A stretch of DNA of 31,785 nt from IMG/VR virus record IMGVR_UViG_3300045988_173362, positions 1 through 31,785 of that record. The stretch is one strand, 5' to 3'. Positions 5,339 through 31,785 of the stretch are shown here, piece by piece. Made by a program: the position numbers and the translations under genes. Under the pieces are notes generated by a model. The model saw nothing but the letters and a program-made list of their open reading frames with translations. It made no database searches and was not told the DNA's origin. The stretch comes from a virus. The number at the start of each line of letters is the position of its first letter. Positions within the stretch are counted from its first letter, which is position 1.

Positions 5339-8300
5339 TTAAGTTTTCGGCACAAGGTCGCTTGTCTTAACGTATCCGTCAACGACATCGTACGCTTGTC
5401 GGGTCGCAACTCTGTATTGCGCTGTTATTTCCTGCGTTCCAGCTGGAACTGCAAGCAGGGATATAACCTGATTGCCCGATATGTCGTAACTCTCACCCTC
5501 TTGAAGAACAATGCCGTCAGCCATAAGTGTTAATGTATTGTCCATAGCAAGATATTTGAGGGTGATTGTCGTAGGCTTATCGGCATAAGAGAACGTTTCG
5601 TTGAACAAACACGAATAGCGATTGATTTGAGCCGAATAAATGAACGAGTATTCAGCGTCGAGAGGTATAACGCCCGAAGCGAGCCTCAATTTGCCGACGG
5701 GATTGCCGCCTGCGTTCGTAGCGTACACGTTGGTATTTGCGGGCGCAATCATCAACACGTAATCGTTAGCCTCACTCGGAACCGGCGAAAAATACAGCGC
5801 GTCGGTGGAATCACCGTAAGCAAGCGTGACGTTTTGCCCGAACAGCATTTCATACCGTCCGTTGCCTTTCCACTTGCACACCGCATAAGCCTTTGCTCCG
5901 TCACGGCGCGGACACGTTCTGCTATCCCACCTAAACACACCGTCAACAATCGTGAAAGGTTGGCTATCGGTCAGCAAACCTATGCGCTCAAAATAGCCTA
6001 CATCGGTATTAATGCTACCTAAATGGAGACTGTCGTTTATGTATTGATTCAAGCCGTTGATAGTATGGTCAAACCAAACCACGTATACCGCCGCTTTCGC
6101 AAGTGTTGGCTCTGTGTCGGTCACGAGTTTGCAGAAGTCCGCAAGACCCGTTCCGACAACTATGTCGTCGCTCTTGGCAATATAGTGGACTTGATACGTC
6201 ACGTCGATTTTTTCTCGACTGTCTTTGTTGATTTCAAGCGCGCCGTCGGTTAGAAGATAACTTACGAGGTACGAATCTACAAGTGCTTTGCTGTGGTCGC
6301 CGCTATACCAGTTGAACTCGTTATCTTGCGGATAGAGTTTTGCATATCCGCCGTCGGCTTGTGCGGCAAGATTCGGTGTCCACCCCTCGTTGTACATCGC
6401 GAAGTGAATGTGACTTACCTCACCGTATACGTCGGTGTACGGCACTAAACGTTGCGCCGCCTTGTTTTTTTCATTCTCGTAATCGTCAGAACTTTGATAG
6501 CCTGCGCCGTAGTTGTCGTAGAACGAGAAGTTGAAGCATATCGACGTGCCAAAGGGGAACGCCACGACGGGCAATATCACCGCTCTGTCTTGCAACGCGT
6601 TTCCTGCCGAGAACGGCAATATCCTCACGAGTTGCGCTTTCTTAATCTCTTCATCGCCGGTCTTGCTGTGGTTGATAGTGTTAATCAGCACGTTAGGTAC
6701 GTTCTGCAAAAGCGTGAGCTTTGAACCTGTCGTCGGGGTCTTGCCGATAAATATCTTGTCGGCGTAATGTATGTGACGTTCAACGCTCTGCTTTTCCGAG
6801 ATGTCGTACAAGCGATAGTTCGAGTTCAAGCCGACGAATTGCGACAACTGATTGAAGTTTTTTGCAAGCGTAACCGTGATTCTTATACGCGTTATGTCGT
6901 ATTCAGCGTCTATCGTCGCAATGTATTTGCCGTCAAGGATCTGCCCGACCTTTGGCATTTGCGAATAGGTTTTGATGTCGTAAGTGCGTTGTTCAACGTC
7001 TTGTCCGAGTCTTGCGATTGCGCCGCGCATTTTCTCGCCGTAGAACGACGTTTCGGCAACGTTTGCGCCCTGATTGTACACAAGCGCGTTATTCGTCTCG
7101 CCGCCGTCCGTAAGCACGGGTTTGACCGCCTCAACGCGCGCCGTCGCTATCGGCACATATGTCACCTTAAACGCAAGCCTGCGATACCATTCGCCGTCGT
7201 TCTTTTCGGCAGACTTCAAAGAAAGTCCTGCCTTTGCATTTATAATGTTGATGATTGCGGTGTTTTGGAATGCGTCGCCAATAGATGTGACGTTTTTTTG
7301 TCGCCAAGTCAAGCCGTCTATCGTCGTGCCGCCTTGCTTCCAACGCAATGCCCACGCTTTTGAATACGGATATGCCGTTCCCCAATAAGACGAAAGCACG
7401 CTGTATTCCGCGTCTTCGTATGCGTATGCGGTGATGTCGCCGACAGGCGTGGTTCTGCCGTCAAAGTTGGCGTCGTGGTCGGGAATGAATCCACATTCGA
7501 GTTTTATGAGCTGTTGAATCGGCAAAGATGTGCGTATAAGCACGTTGTCGCCGTTTATCTCGATATTGCCGTCCTCGGTGCGCACCGTTATATAGTCGTT
7601 GCCGAGTTCAGTTATCGTACCGCCCTCGTCCGTCGTGTTGCAAAGATTCTGCGCGGGCGAGGTTATCTTTCCACACCACTCATTGCTGTCAATCGTGCTG
7701 TCTTGGTATATCATCGGCGGCATAGTCGGTGCTTGCTCGCTTCCGCCGAGTTTGTCAAACGTTACCTTGTAATGCGTATCGTCCGTTGTAGACAACGGCA
7801 CAAGGCGCGGTATTGCGTGGATATATCCGCCCACTTGCGCCAACGCTTCGAACAGCGTGCAGTTGGTGAACGAAAATTCGGGCGCGAGTACGTTCTTGTA
7901 TTCTTCCGCAAAATTCTCGTCAAGCACATATTCCTGCGACGAGAATCCACCGCGCCGTGTTATGCCCGACGACAACAGTCTTTGACACACCGACGTGATT
8001 GTGGGTCGGGTCTTGGTGGCAATCTGCGAAAACAAACTCACTTTATACGTTATTTTTAATGTGTCAGATACATAGTCGGTAGACAGCACTGGTGCGCTTT
8101 CATATTTGGTTTCATATGTAATAGTTAATCGCTCACCCTCGTTGGGAATGGTTAATGTTTCAGTATCAAATCGAGCCAATGAATGACTTTTGGTATATAT
8201 AACGCGACCGTCAACATCAATAGTGACAGTACACGGATACACGCCGAATCGAAATACTCTGCCATAATGAGAATCACTATCGAACACATAAAGACCTTGC

Positions 8301-8833
8301 TCGTCAAGTTCAGGATAGTATTGGACACACGGAATATCGATACTGTCGCCGTGTTGATATGGTTGCATTATTTTATTCTTTTCAACGAGTACGACATTGA
8401 GGTCAACGCCGCCGCCGGGATAATCGGTTTCTTTACTAACGAGTGCTGCCGCATATTTTTCGTTATAGTCCGTATGTAAATACTTTGTACTTGTCAACGT
8501 GCCGATAAAGCGGCGTTCCATAGCCTTTGTGATTTCGATAGTGTTTATCGTCCAATCGTATTTCGCGCCGACAGACGGTGCAAACGTGCGCCGCGTACGC
8601 TTCGTCGATGAAACGAGGCGGTATATTCTATCCACTTCAACACCGTTTTCGGATATGATGATACGAATCGGCGTAAACGGTTTTATGGCGTTATATCGCG
8701 ATGAAAGCGACAGATTGATACACCCTGCGTCGAGAACGTCGTTGAGTGCCGTTCCGTCCGTAAAAGGGCGCGACCACGGTGACAATGCTTGCCATTGATT
8801 GTTTTCAAATATTTGAGGTTGGTAACTAAACAT
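5339..8833 (-). CDS. Large (1164-aa) tail / host-interaction structural protein
   Basis: The start was moved to the ATG at 8833 (MFSYQPQ...), which is preceded by AAAAAGGAG. Composition is beta-rich (Y/T/G/D), not tape-measure-like. It sits between neck/tail genes and the fibre gene. Confidence 0.55.
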   Translation of the reverse strand: MFSYQPQIFENNQWQALSPWSRPFTDGTALNDVLDAGCINLSLSSRYNAIKPFTPIRIIISENGVEVDRIYRLVSSTKRTRRTFAPSVGAKYDWTINTIEITKAMERRFIGTLTSTKYLHTDYNEKYAAALVSKETDYPGGGVDLNVVLVEKNKIMQPYQHGDSIDIPCVQYYPELDEQGLYVFDSDSHYGRVFRFGVYPCTVTIDVDGRVIYTKSHSLARFDTETLTIPNEGERLTITYETKYESAPVLSTDYVSDTLKITYKVSLFSQIATKTRPTITSVCQRLLSSGITRRGGFSSQEYVLDENFAEEYKNVLAPEFSFTNCTLFEALAQVGGYIHAIPRLVPLSTTDDTHYKVTFDKLGGSEQAPTMPPMIYQDSTIDSNEWCGKITSPAQNLCNTTDEGGTITELGNDYITVRTEDGNIEINGDNVLIRTSLPIQQLIKLECGFIPDHDANFDGRTTPVGDITAYAYEDAEYSVLSSYWGTAYPYSKAWALRWKQGGTTIDGLTWRQKNVTSIGDAFQNTAIINIINAKAGLSLKSAEKNDGEWYRRLAFKVTYVPIATARVEAVKPVLTDGGETNNALVYNQGANVAETSFYGEKMRGAIARLGQDVEQRTYDIKTYSQMPKVGQILDGKYIATIDAEYDITRIRITVTLAKNFNQLSQFVGLNSNYRLYDISEKQSVERHIHYADKIFIGKTPTTGSKLTLLQNVPNVLINTINHSKTGDEEIKKAQLVRILPFSAGNALQDRAVILPVVAFPFGTSICFNFSFYDNYGAGYQSSDDYENEKNKAAQRLVPYTDVYGEVSHIHFAMYNEGWTPNLAAQADGGYAKLYPQDNEFNWYSGDHSKALVDSYLVSYLLTDGALEINKDSREKIDVTYQVHYIAKSDDIVVGTGLADFCKLVTDTEPTLAKAAVYVVWFDHTINGLNQYINDSLHLGSINTDVGYFERIGLLTDSQPFTIVDGVFRWDSRTCPRRDGAKAYAVCKWKGNGRYEMLFGQNVTLAYGDSTDALYFSPVPSEANDYVLMIAPANTNVYATNAGGNPVGKLRLASGVIPLDAEYSFIYSAQINRYSCLFNETFSYADKPTTITLKYLAMDNTLTLMADGIVLQEGESYDISGNQVISLLAVPAGTQEITAQYRVATRQAYDVVDGYVKTSDLVPKT

Positions 8834-8861
8834 TGACACTTGCTCCTTTTTGACATAAAAT
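8833..8861 (+). promoter_or_regulatory. Near-consensus sigma70-type promoter for the plus-strand moron
   Basis: TTGACA (8833-8838), a 17-nt spacer, then TAAAAT (8856-8861). The -35 box overlaps the start codon of the divergent tail gene. Confidence 0.55.
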
Positions 8862-8888
8862 AAAAGCACACTAATAGGGGGTGTGCTT

Positions 8889-9488
8889 ATGCGCGAACGC
8901 ATTGGTTATTCAAATTTTGTTGATATGTACGGAAAAATTATTTTTCCGGTTTTAATACTTTTTTTGTATTTAGGTTTTGTTTCGCCGATGGTGTTTTTCA
9001 ATGGTTTTGCAAGAGATTCAATGCACTATTGCTTCTACGTATTTATTCCAAACGCAATTACAATTCCATTGAATTTACAAAATCTTTGGAAAGCCTACTC
9101 GCCCGACAAAAGTTATAATGAATTTTTATCAATTTATGGACAGTATATCGGAACATATATCGCGTTATCCATACTTGCTATTGTCATAATCTGTTGCACA
9201 ATAGCCTTTTTCGTCTTGTACTTCGCAAAGCATAAAACCAACAAGGGGTTGCTCATTGCAATTCCGTCACTCTATATCATAATGGCAATAGTTTTGTGTG
9301 CCGTAACAAAAGGAATCCCCTTTGTCGGCTTCTACACAACGCTGATATTCTTAATCCTTGCAATCTTGTACTGTGCAAATGCGCAGTTGATACCGAAGCC
9401 GCGCCAACACAAGTCGACCAAATCCGAGCGAATCGCCGAGTTGGAAAAGCAAGTTGCCGAACTGACAAAGGAAAAGGACACACATTGA
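8889..9488 (+). CDS. Moron-encoded polytopic membrane protein with a C-terminal coiled coil
   Basis: The ATG at 8889 lies 8 nt after GGGGG. The 199-aa product has 4-5 hydrophobic helices and the tail SERIAELEKQVAELTKEKD. It is the only plus-strand gene in the structural region and is visibly AT-rich (18 G+C in line 8941-9000). Confidence 0.7.
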   Translation: MRERIGYSNFVDMYGKIIFPVLILFLYLGFVSPMVFFNGFARDSMHYCFYVFIPNAITIPLNLQNLWKAYSPDKSYNEFLSIYGQYIGTYIALSILAIVIICCTIAFFVLYFAKHKTNKGLLIAIPSLYIIMAIVLCAVTKGIPFVGFYTTLIFLILAILYCANAQLIPKPRQHKSTKSERIAELEKQVAELTKEKDTH

Positions 9489-12115: not shown

Positions 12116-13201
12116 TTACGGTCTCGAACCCGGGGCAACAACCGTGAATTGCTGACCTTTGGTTCCGATTGTGGTGTATCCGTTCGCCACGATAGGTACA
12201 ATGGAGTACTCGTCCCAGCATTCTGCACCGAAACGATATTTCGGTTGAATTCTGATGCCTTGTCCGTTCGGCGAGGGAATGGTTTTGACGGATTCGTTGA
12301 ACGCCAATGCACGTCCTGTGCCGATTGAGCAGACAGCAAGACCGAGAATCTTGTTGAGCGTGCCGGCTGTCAAACCGAGATACTTCTCTGCGAGTTTCCA
12401 AACCGGATCGGAAACGACATAGCACGGCGTGTTGTCAACGTCGCCGACATAGCCGATGACGGATTCAAGCGTGGTCTTTTCGTCCAATGCACCGGTACGA
12501 ACCATGATTTGACCGTAGTTCGATCCGCCGATGATGACACCTTGTTTTTTGAGGCTGGTGTTGAGTTTTGAGCGAAGCAAGAAACAACGATTGTCTCTCG
12601 GATAGGTATCAATGCCTTGTGATTCGTTGCCGTCGTCAAGGAAGCCGTTTGCGTCGAGCAAATAGCCGAGATACGCGTTGTCGCCGGGTGTTGCGTCCAC
12701 AACGACCTTGTTGCCTGTAGCGGCATCACCGACTGCCGATGTTCCTGCCGCTTGGCAAGTGAGCCATTTGGCAAGTTGTGCCGCGATTGTTACCGCGTTG
12801 ACGTTTTGTGCGACTTTGCCGGTAAGGTTGCGAAGCTCGCCCTCTGCCGCATCGACGTTGATCATGTCTTGCATGTTGGTCGGAATGTCAATGTTGTAGT
12901 CGATCGTGCTGAGGATTTTGATGCCGTATGCTTCCGTCGCGGAAGTATAAGCGTCATCGCTATTGAAATAGCCGCCGTTCTTGTCTGCACCGATGTCACG
13001 CGCTTGTCCTGCGTTAGGTTTGAGACGGATGATTTGGATTTCCGGCGCGTCTGTGTCGGTGGAGTATTTCTCCGTACATGCTTCCTCAGGTCTCGTTACG
13101 ATGCCTTGAAAGATGTTGTCTTTGCCCCTCGTTGCCATGATACGTTTGAGGGTTACTGCGTTTACAAAAGGTGTGTTGATTGCTGAAAAAATTGCTCCCA
13201 T
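12116..13201 (-). CDS. Major capsid protein
   Basis: 361 aa with RBS AAGGAGA. It lies directly after the acidic scaffold gene and is flanked by hairpins. No diagnostic motif was recognised, so the call rests on position and size. Confidence 0.6.
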   Translation of the reverse strand: MGAIFSAINTPFVNAVTLKRIMATRGKDNIFQGIVTRPEEACTEKYSTDTDAPEIQIIRLKPNAGQARDIGADKNGGYFNSDDAYTSATEAYGIKILSTIDYNIDIPTNMQDMINVDAAEGELRNLTGKVAQNVNAVTIAAQLAKWLTCQAAGTSAVGDAATGNKVVVDATPGDNAYLGYLLDANGFLDDGNESQGIDTYPRDNRCFLLRSKLNTSLKKQGVIIGGSNYGQIMVRTGALDEKTTLESVIGYVGDVDNTPCYVVSDPVWKLAEKYLGLTAGTLNKILGLAVCSIGTGRALAFNESVKTIPSPNGQGIRIQPKYRFGAECWDEYSIVPIVANGYTTIGTKGQQFTVVAPGSRP

Positions 13202-26445: not shown

Positions 26446-26615
26446 TTTGCAAGTCCTTTCGTGAACGGCGCGAGTGCTTGTGCCATACTCGGATGTAAAT
26501 TGCTTTTTCTTTCTTGCTCTGCGCTCTTTTTGGCGATGACGGTCATCACCTTGCAAGTGTCGCCGTGTTCAAAAATCATCTTTGAAAGTTCGTTCATACA
26601 TTTGTCGATTCTCAT
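26442..26615 (-). CDS. Hypothetical small protein
   Basis: The start was moved to the ATG at 26615 (RBS GAGGCGGTGA, TAATG overlap with the pentapeptide gene stop). 57 aa. Confidence 0.45.
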   Translation of the reverse strand: MRIDKCMNELSKMIFEHGDTCKVMTVIAKKSAEQERKSNLHPSMAQALAPFTKGLAK

Positions 26616-27337
26616 TAGTAATTCACCGCCTCTTGTCTGTTTATAAAAAAGTGAATGCCAGTCGAACACTCGTTCCAACGGTTTTCGTCAAAGTCGTCAA
26701 CTGTGACTATTTCACCCACCTTATAGATGAACTTTGAATCTCTATCGCTTGCAACGCTCGTCTTAACGCTCGGTGTGCCGTCTATGTTTTGAATTGACAA
26801 CACTTTTGCTTTGTCGCACCGACACTTTCTGCCCGTTGCCGATACACGTTTTGCGTCGCTCAATATTTCGAGTTCCACAATCAAGCCTCGTGCTTTTTTG
26901 TAACCTATGAACGAGCCGAAGTCCGGGCAAGCGTAAGGTACAAACGGAATGTTTTTCGCACGCGACAAGTCCGCACACGACAAGTTCGCCCACGACAAGT
27001 CCGCCCACGACAAGTCCGCACGCGACAAGTTCGCACGCGACAAGTTCGCACGCGACAAGTCCGCCCCCGACAAGTCCGCACGCGACAAGTTCGCACGCGA
27101 CAAGTCCGCACGCGACAAGTCCGCACGCGACAAGTCCGCACGCGACAAGTTCGCCCACGACAAGTTCGCACACGACAAGTTCGCCCACGACAAGTCCGCA
27201 CACGACAAGTCCGCACCCGACAAGTCCGCACACGACAAGTCCGCACGCTCTGCGTCTTGTTGGTCGCTATCTTCCAACCAAAGTTTGTGTTTTCTCAAAA
27301 TCTCTTTAAGTTCTTGTTCTGTAAATGTTTTCATCAT
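26615..27337 (-). CDS. Pentapeptide-repeat protein (19 x A[D/N]LS[C/G/W/R]) with a ~114-aa C-terminal globular domain
   Basis: The repeats can be read directly in the translation. The C-terminal domain ([16 protein letters not shown] ... [14 protein letters not shown]) recalls a domain seen on other phage pentapeptide proteins. The ATG at 27334 may be the true start. Confidence 0.85.
26960..27244. repeat. 19 tandem 15-bp units encoding the pentapeptide repeats
   Basis: The plus-strand unit is CGACAAGT[C/T]CGC[A/C]C[A/C/G]. The Ala, Leu and Ser codons are identical in all copies. Confidence 0.95.
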
Positions 27338-28242: not shown

Positions 28243-28290
28243 TTGCAAAAATACAAGTTGCGTTGGTATACTAAAAATACAAGGTATACT
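28243..28290 (+). promoter_or_regulatory. Candidate repressor (maintenance) promoter(s)
   Basis: Two candidates: TTGCAA-18 nt-TATACT (28243-28272) and TTGGTA-16 nt-TATACT (28263-28290). Both overlap operator sites B and C. Confidence 0.35.
28251..28269. promoter_or_regulatory. Operator site B (ATACAAG-N5-TTGGTAT)
   Basis: Imperfect inverted repeat, with its centre 26 bp from the centre of site C. Confidence 0.5.
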
Positions 28291-28314: not shown

Positions 28315-28953
28315 ATGAATAGAATAAAAGAATTACGAAAGGCAAAAAAGCTGACACAAACTCAACTTGCCCGATTATTTAATATCTCGCAACAAACACT
28401 TTCGGGATGGGAAAACGGGTTGTTTGAACCTGACCAAAAAACGATTTTTAAGATTGCCGATTATTTCGGCGTATCCGTTGACTATCTTCTCGGGCGTGAC
28501 GCGAGCGCACACTCGTGTACAATAGACAACGCGTATGTGCCTGACGCTATCGTTCCGTTCCGAGTGATTGGCACAATCAAGGCTGGGTATGACGGCGCGG
28601 TCGAAGAATTAAGCACAGGCGACCTTATCTCCATACCGCTTGAAATGCTTTGCGGTCGTCCTGCAAGCGATTATTTCGTGCTTCAAGTGCGGGGCAACTC
28701 TATGTATCCCAAAATACTTGACGGTGACCGCGTGCTTGTTCTACGCACCGACAGCGTAGACAGCGGAACGACGGCGATTGTTCTGTACAACGGCGACGAA
28801 GCAACGATAAAAAAGGTTGTGTATTCCGTCGGCGAAAACTGGGTTGACCTTGTTCCAAACAACCCAGAATATGACACGAAGCGAATCTTTGCCAACGAAT
28901 TTGACCAGTTCCGCATACTCGGCAAGGCAGTAAAACTGATACGAGATATTTGA
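28315..28953 (+). CDS. LexA/cI-type phage repressor (XRE HTH + S24 peptidase domain)
   Basis: The start was moved to the ATG at 28315 (RBS AGGAGAG). The HTH is LTQTQLARLFNISQQTLSGWENG. The S24 signatures are GNSMYP (Ser) and ATIKKV (Lys). Confidence 0.9.
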   Translation: MNRIKELRKAKKLTQTQLARLFNISQQTLSGWENGLFEPDQKTIFKIADYFGVSVDYLLGRDASAHSCTIDNAYVPDAIVPFRVIGTIKAGYDGAVEELSTGDLISIPLEMLCGRPASDYFVLQVRGNSMYPKILDGDRVLVLRTDSVDSGTTAIVLYNGDEATIKKVVYSVGENWVDLVPNNPEYDTKRIFANEFDQFRILGKAVKLIRDI

Positions 28954-29008
28954 TTTTGTATAAGGTATATTATTTTTAGATATTATCTTATTTTTTTGGA
29001 GGATTACT

Positions 29009-30532
29009 ATGGGAAAATGCACTATTTGTGGAAAGAAAGGATTATTTGTCAAAGTAAACGATAAAGGCGTTTGCAAAGACTGTGAGGCTGTTGCAAAAAG
29101 AAAGGCTACATTGGATTCGATTGAAAAGCGTTTGGCTGATAAAGAGGCTTTAATGCGTCAAGTTCAAGCCGAGGCTCTTGATAAAATTGACCGCCAAATT
29201 GATGATAAGAACAAAAAGCTCACAAGAATTAACACCGAAATTATTAACAAGACCGAAGAATTGTCAAATACTAACGATTCTTTGCAAAAGGCAATAAAGG
29301 ACTGGGAAACCGCCAGTAAAAAAGTCGCAAAAATTAAACCTTTGTATAAGAGTTTTATGAATCAGTTTGAATCCGAGGACTTTTATTACAAAGTTTGTAC
29401 AAACCCCGAAAGTGCTCGAAGAGAATTTGCGAGCAAGTTTTCTATCATAGAGGACGATGCTCTATATTCCCCGTCCGTCATATTGCATACACACAGTATG
29501 GATATGAAAGATCTGAGAAAAAAACTTAAAGACAACCGAGCAGCAATTGACGCCGTTACGCAAAAATATCTTGCGAAATACACCACAAAAGCAAATAAAG
29601 CCATTTACATTTTGATGACTATGGCATTAGAGGCGGAACTTCAAAACATTATTTTCTCAATGAACGGGAACAAACTTGACGTGTCCTTAAAATCCGTTGA
29701 CAATGTAATTCAAAAGTATTTGAAAATCGCCTCGGACGGAAACCAAACGATTGTAAACACCCTTGTTCACTTCATCGGCGAAATTGAAACGCTATATAAA
29801 AATGTCGTACAAATCGAATTTGAGTATTACACAATCCGTGAACGTGTCAAAGAAGAACAACGAGCATTGCGTGAACAAATGCGTCAAGAAGCGGAAGAAC
29901 GTAAATTGCTTGAACAACAACGTAAAAAGGTTGAGGAAGAAGAACGCAAGTATCGCAATGAAATCCTTAATCTTCAAGAGCAGCTGCAAGATGCAGACGA
30001 AGAAAAGCAGACTCAAATCAACGACCGCATCAACGAAATCAATTCACAACTTGAACAAGTTGAGAGCAAGAAAGAAGATATTATCAATCTTCAAAATGGT
30101 AAAGCAGGATATGTATATATAATCAGCAATCTTGGCTCTTTTGGTGATAATGTTTTCAAAATCGGTATGACGAGAAGATTGAATCCCCAAGAACGCGTAG
30201 ATGAACTTGGAAGTGCATCTGTTCCTTTCCCGTTTGATATTCACGGTATGATATTCTCTGATGATGCTGTGTCATTAGAAAACAAGATGCATAAGATACT
30301 AACAAATCAACGCGTAAACAAAGTAAATTTCAGAAAAGAATTCTTTGCCATATCGATAGACGAACTGCAAAATCTCGTTCAAGAACTCGCACCAACAGCC
30401 GAGTTTAAGACGACTATGCTTGCTGAACAGTATAGGCAATCTCTGTCTATCGGAAATGGCGAAATGAGTAGTTTGAGCGATGAAATTAACCTTGATGAAG
30501 TAGCATCTGACACAGAAGATATTGACGATTAA
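29009..30532 (+). CDS. Zinc-ribbon / coiled-coil / DUF4041-like / T5orf172 (GIY-YIG-superfamily) protein
   Basis: 507 aa with RBS GGAGG. The N-terminus carries CxxC-x14-CxxC. A long heptad-rich middle follows. The C-terminus GYVYIISNLGSFGDNVFKIGMTRRLNPQERVDELGSASVPFPFDIH matches the remembered T5orf172/MUG113 signature. Confidence 0.75.
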   Translation: MGKCTICGKKGLFVKVNDKGVCKDCEAVAKRKATLDSIEKRLADKEALMRQVQAEALDKIDRQIDDKNKKLTRINTEIINKTEELSNTNDSLQKAIKDWETASKKVAKIKPLYKSFMNQFESEDFYYKVCTNPESARREFASKFSIIEDDALYSPSVILHTHSMDMKDLRKKLKDNRAAIDAVTQKYLAKYTTKANKAIYILMTMALEAELQNIIFSMNGNKLDVSLKSVDNVIQKYLKIASDGNQTIVNTLVHFIGEIETLYKNVVQIEFEYYTIRERVKEEQRALREQMRQEAEERKLLEQQRKKVEEEERKYRNEILNLQEQLQDADEEKQTQINDRINEINSQLEQVESKKEDIINLQNGKAGYVYIISNLGSFGDNVFKIGMTRRLNPQERVDELGSASVPFPFDIHGMIFSDDAVSLENKMHKILTNQRVNKVNFRKEFFAISIDELQNLVQELAPTAEFKTTMLAEQYRQSLSIGNGEMSSLSDEINLDEVASDTEDIDD

Positions 30533-30535
30533 ACT

Positions 30536-31645
30536 ATGCCAAACACATTTAAGTACAACATTCAAGAACGCGAAACCAAGAAGAACGGAACGCTTTACGA
30601 CCTCTATTTTTATATACAAACTCCCGACGGTCGCAAACAAAAACTTCTGCGCGGCTTCAAGACAAAGAAACTCGCCAAACAGGCTTATGAGCAATTTATG
30701 GAAAAACACCTTGTTGCTCCCCAAAAATACGACGGAAAAAACATCGTCCGATATGAGCTTGCCAGACGTGAATATCTCGGATTCGCTCGAAACACCGTAA
30801 AAGAGAGTTCGCTGTATGATTTTATCCACACTGCCAAAAAGCATTATGACGATTTCTTTGCCGGACGAGATATGCAAACCGTCACAAAACAAGACATAAT
30901 CGAATGGCAAGACCAGCTTTGGGCAAAAACCTACCGCGGAAAACTCTACACGCAAAAAACATTGAAAAAAATATATGGGCAGTTTTCCGTCTTTTATTCG
31001 TGGTGCGTTGAACACTACGGCTTTGACAACGCGCTGAAAGGCGTAAAAATGCCGAAACGAAAGGATAATAAAGAACCTCGCCAAATATGGACGGAAGCCG
31101 AATTTGAGCGTTTCATAGCCTCAGTTGACGATTTGCGATACCGCGCAATCTTCACCGCTCTTTTTTATTGCGGTTGCCGCGTCGGCGAACTGCAAGCTCT
31201 GCGCTCAACCGACTACGACGGACAACAGTTTTACATACACGGAACCCTCACGCGAAAAACGATGGACGGCTCGCCATATCGTATTACGGAAACCAAAAAC
31301 TATAAGTCACGCTTTGTTCCGCTTCCCGACAAGGCAAAAAGAGTCATCGACTTGTGGATTGCTCAAAAAACACAAACCGCAATCCCGTCAACCTATCTGT
31401 TCGGCGGTTCTGCCCCCATATCCCTAAACGCCATACAAAACGCTATGACGCGCGGCATTGAAAAGTCTGCCGTAAAAAAAATACGGATACACGACTTGCG
31501 CCACTCATATGTTTCATTGTTGATGTCAAAAGGAGCGAACTTTGGAGTTATTGCCGCCCTCATCGGCGACACTCTCGAACAAGTGGTAAAAACATACGCA
31601 CATCACACAGAGGAAGATAAGACAAACATAATCTCTCTTTTATGA
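30536..31645 (+). CDS. int: Tyrosine integrase
   Basis: 369 aa. The N-terminal arm-binding-type domain is LYDLYFYIQTPDGRKQKLLRGFKTKKLAKQAY. The catalytic region is RIHDLRHSYVSLL ... VVKTYAHH. The gene is adjacent to the att repeat. Confidence 0.92.
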   Translation: MPNTFKYNIQERETKKNGTLYDLYFYIQTPDGRKQKLLRGFKTKKLAKQAYEQFMEKHLVAPQKYDGKNIVRYELARREYLGFARNTVKESSLYDFIHTAKKHYDDFFAGRDMQTVTKQDIIEWQDQLWAKTYRGKLYTQKTLKKIYGQFSVFYSWCVEHYGFDNALKGVKMPKRKDNKEPRQIWTEAEFERFIASVDDLRYRAIFTALFYCGCRVGELQALRSTDYDGQQFYIHGTLTRKTMDGSPYRITETKNYKSRFVPLPDKAKRVIDLWIAQKTQTAIPSTYLFGGSAPISLNAIQNAMTRGIEKSAVKKIRIHDLRHSYVSLLMSKGANFGVIAALIGDTLEQVVKTYAHHTEEDKTNIISLL

Positions 31646-31680
31646 TTTTTTGATAATATTTGTGATAATAAAACAAGCGA

Positions 31681-31710
31681 AATTCCACGCAATTCCACGC
31701 AATTCCACGC
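31681..31710. repeat. Three perfect tandem 10-bp repeats (AATTCCACGC), candidate integrase arm-type sites
   Basis: Read directly from the sequence. The repeats lie 36 nt after the int stop and 20 nt before the att core. Confidence 0.8.
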
Positions 31711-31730: not shown

Positions 31731-31785
31731 ACGAAAAACCCCACTGTTTAGTAGGATTTTTACATTTTTGGTGGAGATAAGCGGG
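31731..31785. repeat. Right copy of 55-bp terminal direct repeat (attR-like core)
   Basis: Identical to 1-55. Confidence 0.8.

Follow-up and report, generated by a model that had tools for sequence, protein, structure and literature searches.

What does a temperate phage encode in a gene set between its repressor and its integrase, and what would that gene do for the lysogen that carries it? The question is raised by the right end of IMG/VR virus record IMGVR_UViG_3300045988_173362, here called the window (positions 1 to 31,785 of the record, the whole stretch of 31,785 nucleotides, nt, that was analyzed), where an open reading frame (ORF) of 507 amino acids with an ATG start (29009-30532, + strand) lies among the lysogeny genes. 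We propose that the product of this cargo gene is probably a single-protein nuclease resembling SNIPE, expressed in the lysogen and destroying incoming phage DNA, and carried as cargo by a temperate tailed phage whose host is a gut member of the Clostridiales. The parts of this proposal differ in strength: that the protein is a defense nuclease of the SNIPE kind appears highly likely; that it cleaves DNA at the membrane during injection, a specific step taken from SNIPE by homology, we consider slightly likelier true than false. The system that serves as reference was found as PD-lambda-1 by functional selection in Escherichia coli (Vassallo et al., 2022, PMC9519451), and has since been characterized and renamed SNIPE (Saxton et al., 2026, Nature, PMC13190303). 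SNIPE combines an inner-membrane anchor, a DUF4041 middle domain and a GIY-YIG nuclease, and cuts phage DNA during injection. The E414A substitution abolishes both defense and toxicity, deletion of DUF4041 is likewise inactivating, the protein devoid of its transmembrane (TM) segment is toxic and nucleoid-bound, and an induced resident prophage is left unaffected (PMC13190303).

The assignment follows from the nuclease and the helical stalk that precedes it. Pfam matches MUG113 (2.6e-17) and T5orf172 (2.1e-15) in residues 367-459 of the cargo protein, with scores of 63.6 and 57.5 bits against gathering cut-offs of 22.3 and 20, bearing out the T5orf172/MUG113 segment of the GIY-YIG superfamily that an earlier, sequence-only reading of this locus had recognized. 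Both PADLOC models for PD-Lambda-1 match as well (E 2.4e-84 and 3.8e-76), the better of them (PDLC03976) pairing residues 37-487 with positions 29-478 of its 491, and PHROG 1847, a family of unknown function, matches at 3.7e-96. On the PADLOC scale, the cargo protein attains 282 bits, compared with 658 for SNIPE itself and 526 for the homologue of Clostridium phage CDMH1. The E. coli PD-lambda-1 reference used here is the gene from phage PhiR26_1, which has each of the nine residues that the SNIPE paper names, at the positions given there; BLASTP aligns it with residues 287-485 of the cargo protein at 45% identity (E 6e-55), and residues 469-485 of the C-terminal tail still fall within that alignment. 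A profile of the subfamily compared with SNIPE by hhalign matches over residues 269-491 (SNIPE 258-477, E 3.4e-50), and its comparison with six canonical SNIPE homologues reaches 5.3e-72. The stalk (residues 249-362; 29753..30094, + strand) is homologous to the "downstream alpha-helix" of SNIPE, as seen in BLASTP from residue 287 and in hhalign, where residues 269-362 align with SNIPE 258-355 inside the match at 3.4e-50.

In the nuclease domain itself (residues 363-468; 30095..30412, + strand), E424 is aligned with the catalytic E414 of SNIPE, and G367, Y370, K384, G386, R389, R390, R396, E424 and N437 are invariant in an alignment of 46 relatives with 47-75% identity. The domain is predicted to adopt an alpha/beta fold, with strands at 367-373, 382-388 and 410-417 and helices in between, and its fold matches to T5orf172 proteins in BFVD reach E 4e-5; a search of PDB sequences with the family profile found nothing, and Foldseek against the PDB returned nothing at E<=0.001, with the GIY-YIG nuclease Slx1 appearing weakly at an E-value of about 1. 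The protein ends in C-terminal helices and an acidic tail with a net charge of -10 (residues 469-507; 30413..30532, + strand, including the stop codon). The supposition that this architecture has no assigned function is wrong in view of the PADLOC match and the published SNIPE mechanism. Several other labels were considered and set aside. An SMC/Wadjet-like identity was rejected because the PADLOC matches to JetC, ZorA and PbeC (E 7e-5 to 0.2) reflect coiled-coil composition, as do the JetC, spectrin and RNase Y matches of the first stalk; the NCBIfam matches (TrlF, RNase Y, SMC-like) are all below threshold and confined to coiled coil; and the "transcription initiation factor TFIIB" annotation found in the source reflects the zinc ribbon only. 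Phage records label related homologues as "helicase" or "chromosome segregation ATPase".

Despite their sequence divergence, the cargo protein and SNIPE are co-linear in predicted structure. In AlphaFold2 models of both proteins (mean predicted local distance difference test, pLDDT, of 78.9 for the cargo protein and 76.2 for E. coli SNIPE), the zinc ribbon at residues 1-25 of the former takes the place of the TM helix at residues 6-47 of the latter, and is followed by a long first helix (45-131, against 54-133 in SNIPE), a disordered linker (144-165 and 134-142), a middle domain, a second stalk (helices 249-328 and 331-362, against 246-317 and 321-355) and the nuclease (367-468 and 359-459). 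The first stalk spans residues 26-143 (29084..29437, + strand), with its 87-residue helix at pLDDT 82-95, and the linker after it (29438..29503, + strand) drops below 50 at residues 145-162. The heptad-rich helix of about 300 residues described in the sequence-only reading therefore survives as long helices, not as a single one, since two of them (45-131 and 249-362) flank a folded three-helix domain at residues 166-243.

On this basis, the lysogen would produce the protein along with the repressor and the integrase, as suggested by the shared strand, the signal-free gap of 55 nt behind the repressor gene, a strong ribosome-binding site of its own and a spacing of 3 nt to the integrase gene, and we infer that expression starts from the repressor promoter. 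The model depicts an elongated molecule in which a zinc ribbon, an 87-residue helix, a basic three-helix domain, a second stalk, a GIY-YIG/T5orf172 nuclease and an acidic tail follow one another. Its N-terminal module would position it at the site of phage DNA entry, a task that sister proteins with the same middle domain would accomplish through one or two TM helices and, in a few cases, through TM helices and a ribbon; in the cargo protein, the KKGLFxK loop of the ribbon would bind the cytoplasmic face of the membrane or a protein associated with entry. By homology with SNIPE, the middle domain would then engage either the tape-measure complex or the DNA as it comes in, and the nuclease would cut that DNA during injection. 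The resident prophage and the chromosome would be spared, again as in SNIPE, because the enzyme is not presented with DNA that is already in the cell.

Several results weigh against this account. The cargo protein has no TM helix, its highest mean Kyte-Doolittle hydropathy over 19 residues being 1.34, inside the middle domain, compared with 3.37 at residues 6-24 of SNIPE, and zinc ribbons usually bind nucleic acids or proteins, not lipids. Since SNIPE attacks the host nucleoid when deprived of its TM segment, a membrane-based sparing of host DNA is unproven for a cargo protein that naturally has none. The middle domain poses a similar difficulty. Pfam DUF4041 (PF13250) gives no match in the cargo protein at E<=0.1, nor in the 46 relatives at E<=5, and the PADLOC PD-Lambda-1 models do not match the N-terminal 274 residues when these are searched alone, indicating that the score of 282 bits comes from the stalk and the nuclease. 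When isolated middle regions were compared by hhalign with 6, 37 and 125 canonical sequences, E-values ranged from 0.007 to 0.22, inside the null distribution obtained by shuffling columns, and an exhaustive phmmer search with residues 150-274 yielded no bridging sequences that would connect this region to DUF4041. With no significant similarity to DUF4041, binding of DNA or tape measure by the middle domain is an extrapolation.

The N-terminus nonetheless behaves as an exchangeable module within a family that is largely membrane-associated. The zinc ribbon (residues 1-25; 29009..29083, + strand) has the arrangement C4-x2-C7-x14-C22-x2-C25, which confirms the N-terminal CxxC-x14-CxxC pattern noted from the sequence, and encloses a KKGLFVK loop. 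Among the 46 relatives, F13 is invariant and conservation of the four cysteines and of G11 is 90% or higher, and AlphaFold2 predicts beta strands here at a pLDDT of about 81. Pfam similarities are weak: A2L_zn_ribbon matches at 0.012 and DUF4428 (PF14471) at 0.018, the latter with 15.3 bits and hence short of its gathering threshold of 27.8, and comparably weak DUF4428 matches occur in 8 of the 46 relatives (best 0.0041). A ribbon alone is found in 115 of the 120 closest relatives, two TM helices followed by a ribbon in two (P0110 and P0116), and neither element in three. The balance shifts among 54 full-length representatives of the middle-domain family at large, where an N-terminal TM segment occurs in 33, a ribbon alone in 8, and neither of the two in 13. 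The homologue of Roseburia hominis, encoded before an integrase gene, illustrates the exchange, with 52% identity over residues 60-480, the same middle domain and a TM segment in place of the ribbon. These sequence comparisons indicate that the family is membrane-associated and that its N-terminal module is an adapter that can be swapped, matching the conclusion of the SNIPE paper that adapters vary; a TM anchor is present at the N-terminus of 66% of published SNIPE homologues. The KKGLFVK loop, being basic and hydrophobic, is a plausible candidate for binding to the membrane periphery or to a partner.

Within the same family, some of the N-terminal TM segments of the 33 representatives resemble lipoprotein signals with long extensions. 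The members P0255, P0256, P0259, P0272 and P0306, of 650-780 amino acids, display lipoprotein-like signals (e.g., LLLLGCSTT) ahead of long N-terminal extensions that may lie outside the cytoplasm. Many of the 13 members with neither TM nor ribbon begin with an amphipathic sequence of the MGLF or MGIF type, and in P0253, P0261, P0273, P0302, P0375, P0107 and P0112, which also have neither, an MGLF, MGIF or MSIF start is often followed by an amphipathic stretch. We take these starts to resemble the membrane-binding N-terminal helix of PspA-type proteins.

The middle domain (residues 166-248; 29504..29752, + strand) occupies the position of DUF4041 in SNIPE and is modeled as three helices at pLDDT 83-92. 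In order, its helices 166-190, 194-217 and 223-243 correspond to SNIPE 143-165, 185-212 and 219-236, and the beta-hairpin that SNIPE forms at residues 173-184 has no counterpart. Pfam DUF4041 matches SNIPE and the homologues of Streptococcus phage Javan523 and Clostridium phage CDMH1 at 1e-16 to 1e-20, and is carried by all 120 of the closest relatives of SNIPE, against none of the 120 closest relatives of the cargo protein. The phmmer search with residues 150-274, made against 1.84 billion representatives, delineated only 155 clusters at 50% identity; in the ten most distant of these relatives, T5orf172 is kept in eight and DUF4041 is detected in none (Pfam, E<=0.01). The largest hhalign comparison of the middle domain, with 108 against 125 sequences, gave a score that 3 of 40 shuffles also reached. 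Most hhalign runs returned the same weak register, in which residue 200 of the cargo protein corresponds to SNIPE residue 196, so that the second and third middle helices are superposed and the invariant K194, A206 and E210 are paired with the conserved K190, A202 and E206 of SNIPE, at scores within those of shuffled controls. The "DUF4041-like" label given in the sequence-only reading is hence supported by none of the sequence tests (Pfam, PADLOC, hhalign and phmmer), and it is only the order of the predicted helices that argues for equivalence. In our reading, the middle domain is equivalent to DUF4041 and has either diverged from it very far or replaced it; its net charge of +6 is like that of the DNA-binding face described for DUF4041.

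The absence of a TM or other hydrophobic segment and the lack of sequence relationship between the middle domain and DUF4041 are also what could be expected of a soluble, auto-inhibited cytoplasmic nuclease that is released when its ribbon or middle domain senses a DNA end or a phage protein after entry, and that then degrades phage DNA, and possibly host DNA, in the manner of abortive infection. Such a protein would have the effector of SNIPE with a different discrimination between self and non-self. Because TM-less SNIPE goes to the nucleoid and cuts host DNA, a protein that is naturally TM-less needs some other control, and membrane-localized SNIPE is itself called auto-inhibited in the SNIPE paper. 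We nevertheless judge this explanation unlikely, since TM anchors prevail among the proteins that share this middle domain and nuclease, and a few of these proteins bear both TM and ribbon, which argues for an N-terminus near the membrane across the family, and since the ribbon has an invariant basic-hydrophobic loop. It is likewise doubtful that the ribbon-bearing, DUF4041-negative subfamily separates incoming from host DNA by a route that dispenses with a membrane anchor; the ribbon could, for instance, attach directly to a component that the phage injects or to an entry receptor of Gram-positive cells, or restrain the nuclease until a DNA end enters through the membrane. If so, the SNIPE kind would include a second solution that works by a distinct mechanism, and the N-terminal and middle modules would be interchangeable specificity cassettes on a constant nuclease.

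A role in the phage life cycle, as a GIY-YIG homing-type endonuclease, as an integration or excision factor or in lytic degradation of host DNA, has in its favor that T5orf172 domains are widespread in non-defense settings in lytic phages and large DNA viruses, as the BFVD matches show, and that the gene lies immediately 5' of the integrase gene and may be translationally coupled to it. The genomic context, on which a homing-endonuclease or excision-factor role was rejected, speaks otherwise: the gene lies in the putative lysogeny operon and runs opposite to all lytic genes, and its homologues pair with tyrosine or serine recombinases and with S24- or ImmA-type repressors, so that the gene is not tied to one recombination system, and one of them sits at the lysis end of another prophage. 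A helical stalk of 360 residues is, moreover, atypical of homing endonucleases, and homologues with the same effector are proven defenses; we regard a life-cycle role as very improbable. Least probable of all is that the protein is an inactive remnant or a DNA-binding protein devoid of nuclease activity. Pfam does describe T5orf172 as a DNA-binding domain, but the GIY-YIG core residues, including the catalytic glutamate, are invariant in 46 of 46 relatives, and the whole length of the gene is under purifying selection, with a ratio of nonsynonymous to synonymous substitution rates (dN/dS) of 0.041.

A SNIPE-like defense nuclease thus remains the preferred reading, and comparison with known systems helps define its place. 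The cargo protein resembles SNIPE in being the product of a single, prophage-borne gene of about 500 amino acids, in its predicted order of modules (adapter, long helix, middle helical domain, long helix, T5orf172/GIY-YIG, C-terminal helix) and in the 45% identity of the last 200 residues, with conservation of the catalytic glutamate and a PADLOC match. It differs in having a zinc ribbon and no TM segment, in a middle domain that has neither the Pfam signature of DUF4041 nor its beta-hairpin, and in a Gram-positive Clostridiales host that does not offer the ManYZ or LamB entry route. Because the nuclease, the stalk, the single-gene layout and the hidden Markov model call agree with SNIPE and the TM segment and DUF4041 signature do not, we assign it to the PD-lambda-1/SNIPE kind as a divergent member from a sister group, and not as a canonical SNIPE. 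The kind as such is already known, since existing tools call the gene as PD-Lambda-1 and TM-less homologues with an N-terminal DUF4428 have been depicted (Extended Data Fig. 10d, PMC13190303). Those homologues share with the cargo protein the replacement of the TM segment by a small N-terminal globular domain on a SNIPE-like body; they were described by prediction, with no role proposed for DUF4428, a domain that the ribbon of the cargo protein matches weakly (E 0.018).

Other systems are alike in part. PD-Lambda-1 EU01, which the same PD-Lambda-1 model calls in Streptococcus thermophilus, likewise a Gram-positive host, protects against several siphovirus genera by more than 3 logs (PMC12322248); the streptococcal phage homologue of Javan523, unlike the cargo protein, carries DUF4041. 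Superinfection exclusion of the Ltp type in temperate Firmicute phages (such as TP-J34, PMC3952083) likewise relies on a gene that adjoins the integrase gene in the lysogeny module and blocks injection, but Ltp, a small lipoprotein at the cell surface, has no nuclease, blocks entry from the outer side of the membrane and shows no homology to the cargo protein. The nuclease fold and motifs also occur in stand-alone T5orf172/MUG113 proteins and in the PADLOC candidate PDC-S57 (2.2e-18), which lack the helical stalks, middle domain and N-terminal adapter of the cargo protein.

The preferred reading would extend SNIPE/PD-lambda-1 defense to temperate phages of uncultured gut Clostridiales, and would define a sister group (the 155 clusters at 50% identity, abundant in gut metagenomes) that keeps the nuclease and stalk and swaps the two other modules. 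Since SNIPE without its anchor kills E. coli, a naturally anchor-less form provides a convenient test of whether host DNA is protected by membrane position, by auto-inhibition or by a partner bound to the ribbon. For annotation purposes, genes of this type are best named PD-lambda-1/SNIPE-like defense genes.

The arrangement of the locus is consistent with expression in the lysogen. Two overlapping, sigma-70-like promoter candidates (TTGCAA-18-TATACT with a TG element, and TTGGTA-16-TATACT; 28243..28290, + strand), found by consensus scan and being consensus matches only, lie just 5' of the repressor gene and are a possible lysogeny-operon promoter. The repressor gene (28315..28953, + strand, with its stop codon at 28951-28953) encodes a CI/LexA-type protein of 212 amino acids (Pfam Peptidase_S24 3.3e-21, HTH_3 1.9e-19), and is followed by an AT-rich spacer of 55 nt (28954..29008, + strand) in which the consensus scan called no promoter or terminator on the + strand, and which holds GGAGG at 28998-29002, 6 nt 5' of the cargo-gene ATG. 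The stop codon of the cargo gene (TAA, 30530-30532) is separated by ACT from the ATG of the integrase gene at 30536, before which no Shine-Dalgarno sequence is visible; the latter gene (30536..31645, + strand) encodes a tyrosine integrase of 369 amino acids (Pfam Phage_integrase 2e-17, with Phage_int_SAM_3 and Arm-DNA-bind_4). From this layout, co-expression of repressor, cargo and integrase genes as an operon is plausible. The claims of the sequence-only reading on these points are accurate throughout: a 507-residue ORF on the repressor strand, a gap of 55 nt with no terminator or strong promoter, and 3 nt between the cargo stop codon and an integrase ATG with no clear ribosome-binding site.

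Equally exact was its observation that the gene is richer in AT than the phage core, with 19 G+C in the 60-nt line 29221-29280 and 33 in line 12421-12480. The G+C fraction of the cargo gene is 0.376, against 0.453 for the whole contig, making it the lowest in the contig, and just 0.8% of 1524-nt segments are equally low. The G+C fraction at third codon positions is also reduced (0.362, against 0.488 and 0.486 in the two neighboring genes), which indicates that the low G+C is not merely a consequence of encoding a protein rich in lysine, glutamate and asparagine.

Relatives of the cargo gene recur in similar settings. Nine subfamily loci were sampled, a small set selected by the size of the source sequence and thus indicative, not statistical, and in eight of them the homologue belongs to a lysogeny module, where a repressor-type gene and the gene for a tyrosine or serine recombinase share its strand (one of the eight, the Roseburia locus, was checked for the integrase only). 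The homologue is found between an S24 repressor gene and a small ORF that precedes a tyrosine integrase gene (P0002); after a helix-turn-helix (HTH) gene and an ORF and before a tyrosine integrase gene, with a 2-nt gap (P0005); after HTH and ImmA genes and before either three small ORFs and a serine recombinase gene (P0007) or a KilA-N gene and a serine recombinase gene (P0017); ahead of an S24 repressor gene and a tyrosine integrase gene (P0009); and directly between an HTH gene and a tyrosine integrase gene (P0110). In P0025, it follows the endolysin gene at the lysis end of the prophage. The canonical, DUF4041-type homologues of Javan523 and CDMH1 also stand between repressor and integrase genes. 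Gaps of 12-31 nt to the upstream gene on the same strand, seen in three of the sampled loci, support co-transcription with that gene, and no partner gene is conserved, as the neighbors vary among S24- and ImmA-type repressors, tyrosine and serine recombinases, KilA-N and endolysin. Together with the homology to PD-lambda-1/SNIPE, the recurrence of relatives between repressor and recombinase genes lends support to the earlier suggestion of a single-gene nuclease defense carried as cargo in the lysogeny module. As a separate observation, an Abi_alpha gene is present in loci L009 and L010 (2771-3541), 1.5 kb upstream of the homologue in the lysogeny region of another prophage, so that defense genes cluster in that region.

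A protein 98% identical to the cargo protein is encoded, in the same gene arrangement, by a prophage (L004) of a human-gut Clostridiales metagenome-assembled genome (UMGS1042), and comparison of the two loci shows the defense gene to be the best conserved of the three genes. The repressor genes share 90.3% of their nucleotides, with a synonymous divergence (dS) of 0.37 and a dN/dS of 0.107; the defense genes share 94.8%, with a dS of 0.26 and a dN/dS of 0.041; and the integrase genes share 80.9%, with a dS of 1.17 and a dN/dS of 0.077. The 55-nt spacer is 98% identical over 50 alignable nt, above the value for the repressor gene, which suggests that the defense gene and its spacer moved together by mosaic exchange between prophages. 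This pattern of conservation fits a selected, mosaic cargo gene, and the dN/dS of the defense gene indicates a functional gene under strong purifying selection over its full length.

The remainder of the window is that of a temperate tailed phage, with terminase, portal, tail fiber, Erf-like and cro-like genes all on the - strand and the lysogeny genes on the + strand at the right end. Megablast of positions 8000-31785 against 50,697 phage records gave no match, implying that the phage itself is undescribed. In the tail region, an ORF of 1187 amino acids (5339-8902, - strand) is of tape-measure size and has no PHROG match at 1e-5. In the early region, a gene adjoining the cro-like gene (26615-27337, - strand) encodes a pentapeptide-repeat protein of 240 amino acids (ADLSxANLSx... 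repeats, with repetitive DNA beneath them) with a C-terminal domain, and its PHROG matches are all of unknown function.

Downstream of the integrase gene, a hairpin flanked by T/A runs on both sides (31734..31761) is called by the scan on the - strand and followed by TTTTT on the + strand, and could serve as a terminator in both directions, its use on the + strand being suggested by that run. The contig ends in TGGTGGAGATAAGCGGG (31769..31785, - strand), of which 17 nt are visible and which resembles the reverse complement of a tRNA 3' end (TGGTGGAG...); this is a probable edge of the attachment site. At the equivalent place in L004, ARAGORN locates a tRNA-Val(gac) gene on the - strand (8770-8846), abutting the prophage end. 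Its sequence differs from the end of the window, and the two integrases are 85% identical, which suggests that the two phages are related and use different tRNA attachment sites. Between the integrase stop codon and the contig end, three direct 10-mers (AAATTCCACG CAATTCCACG CAATTCCACG) occupy positions 31680-31709; two copies are retained in L004, and the repeats may be arm-type binding sites for the integrase.

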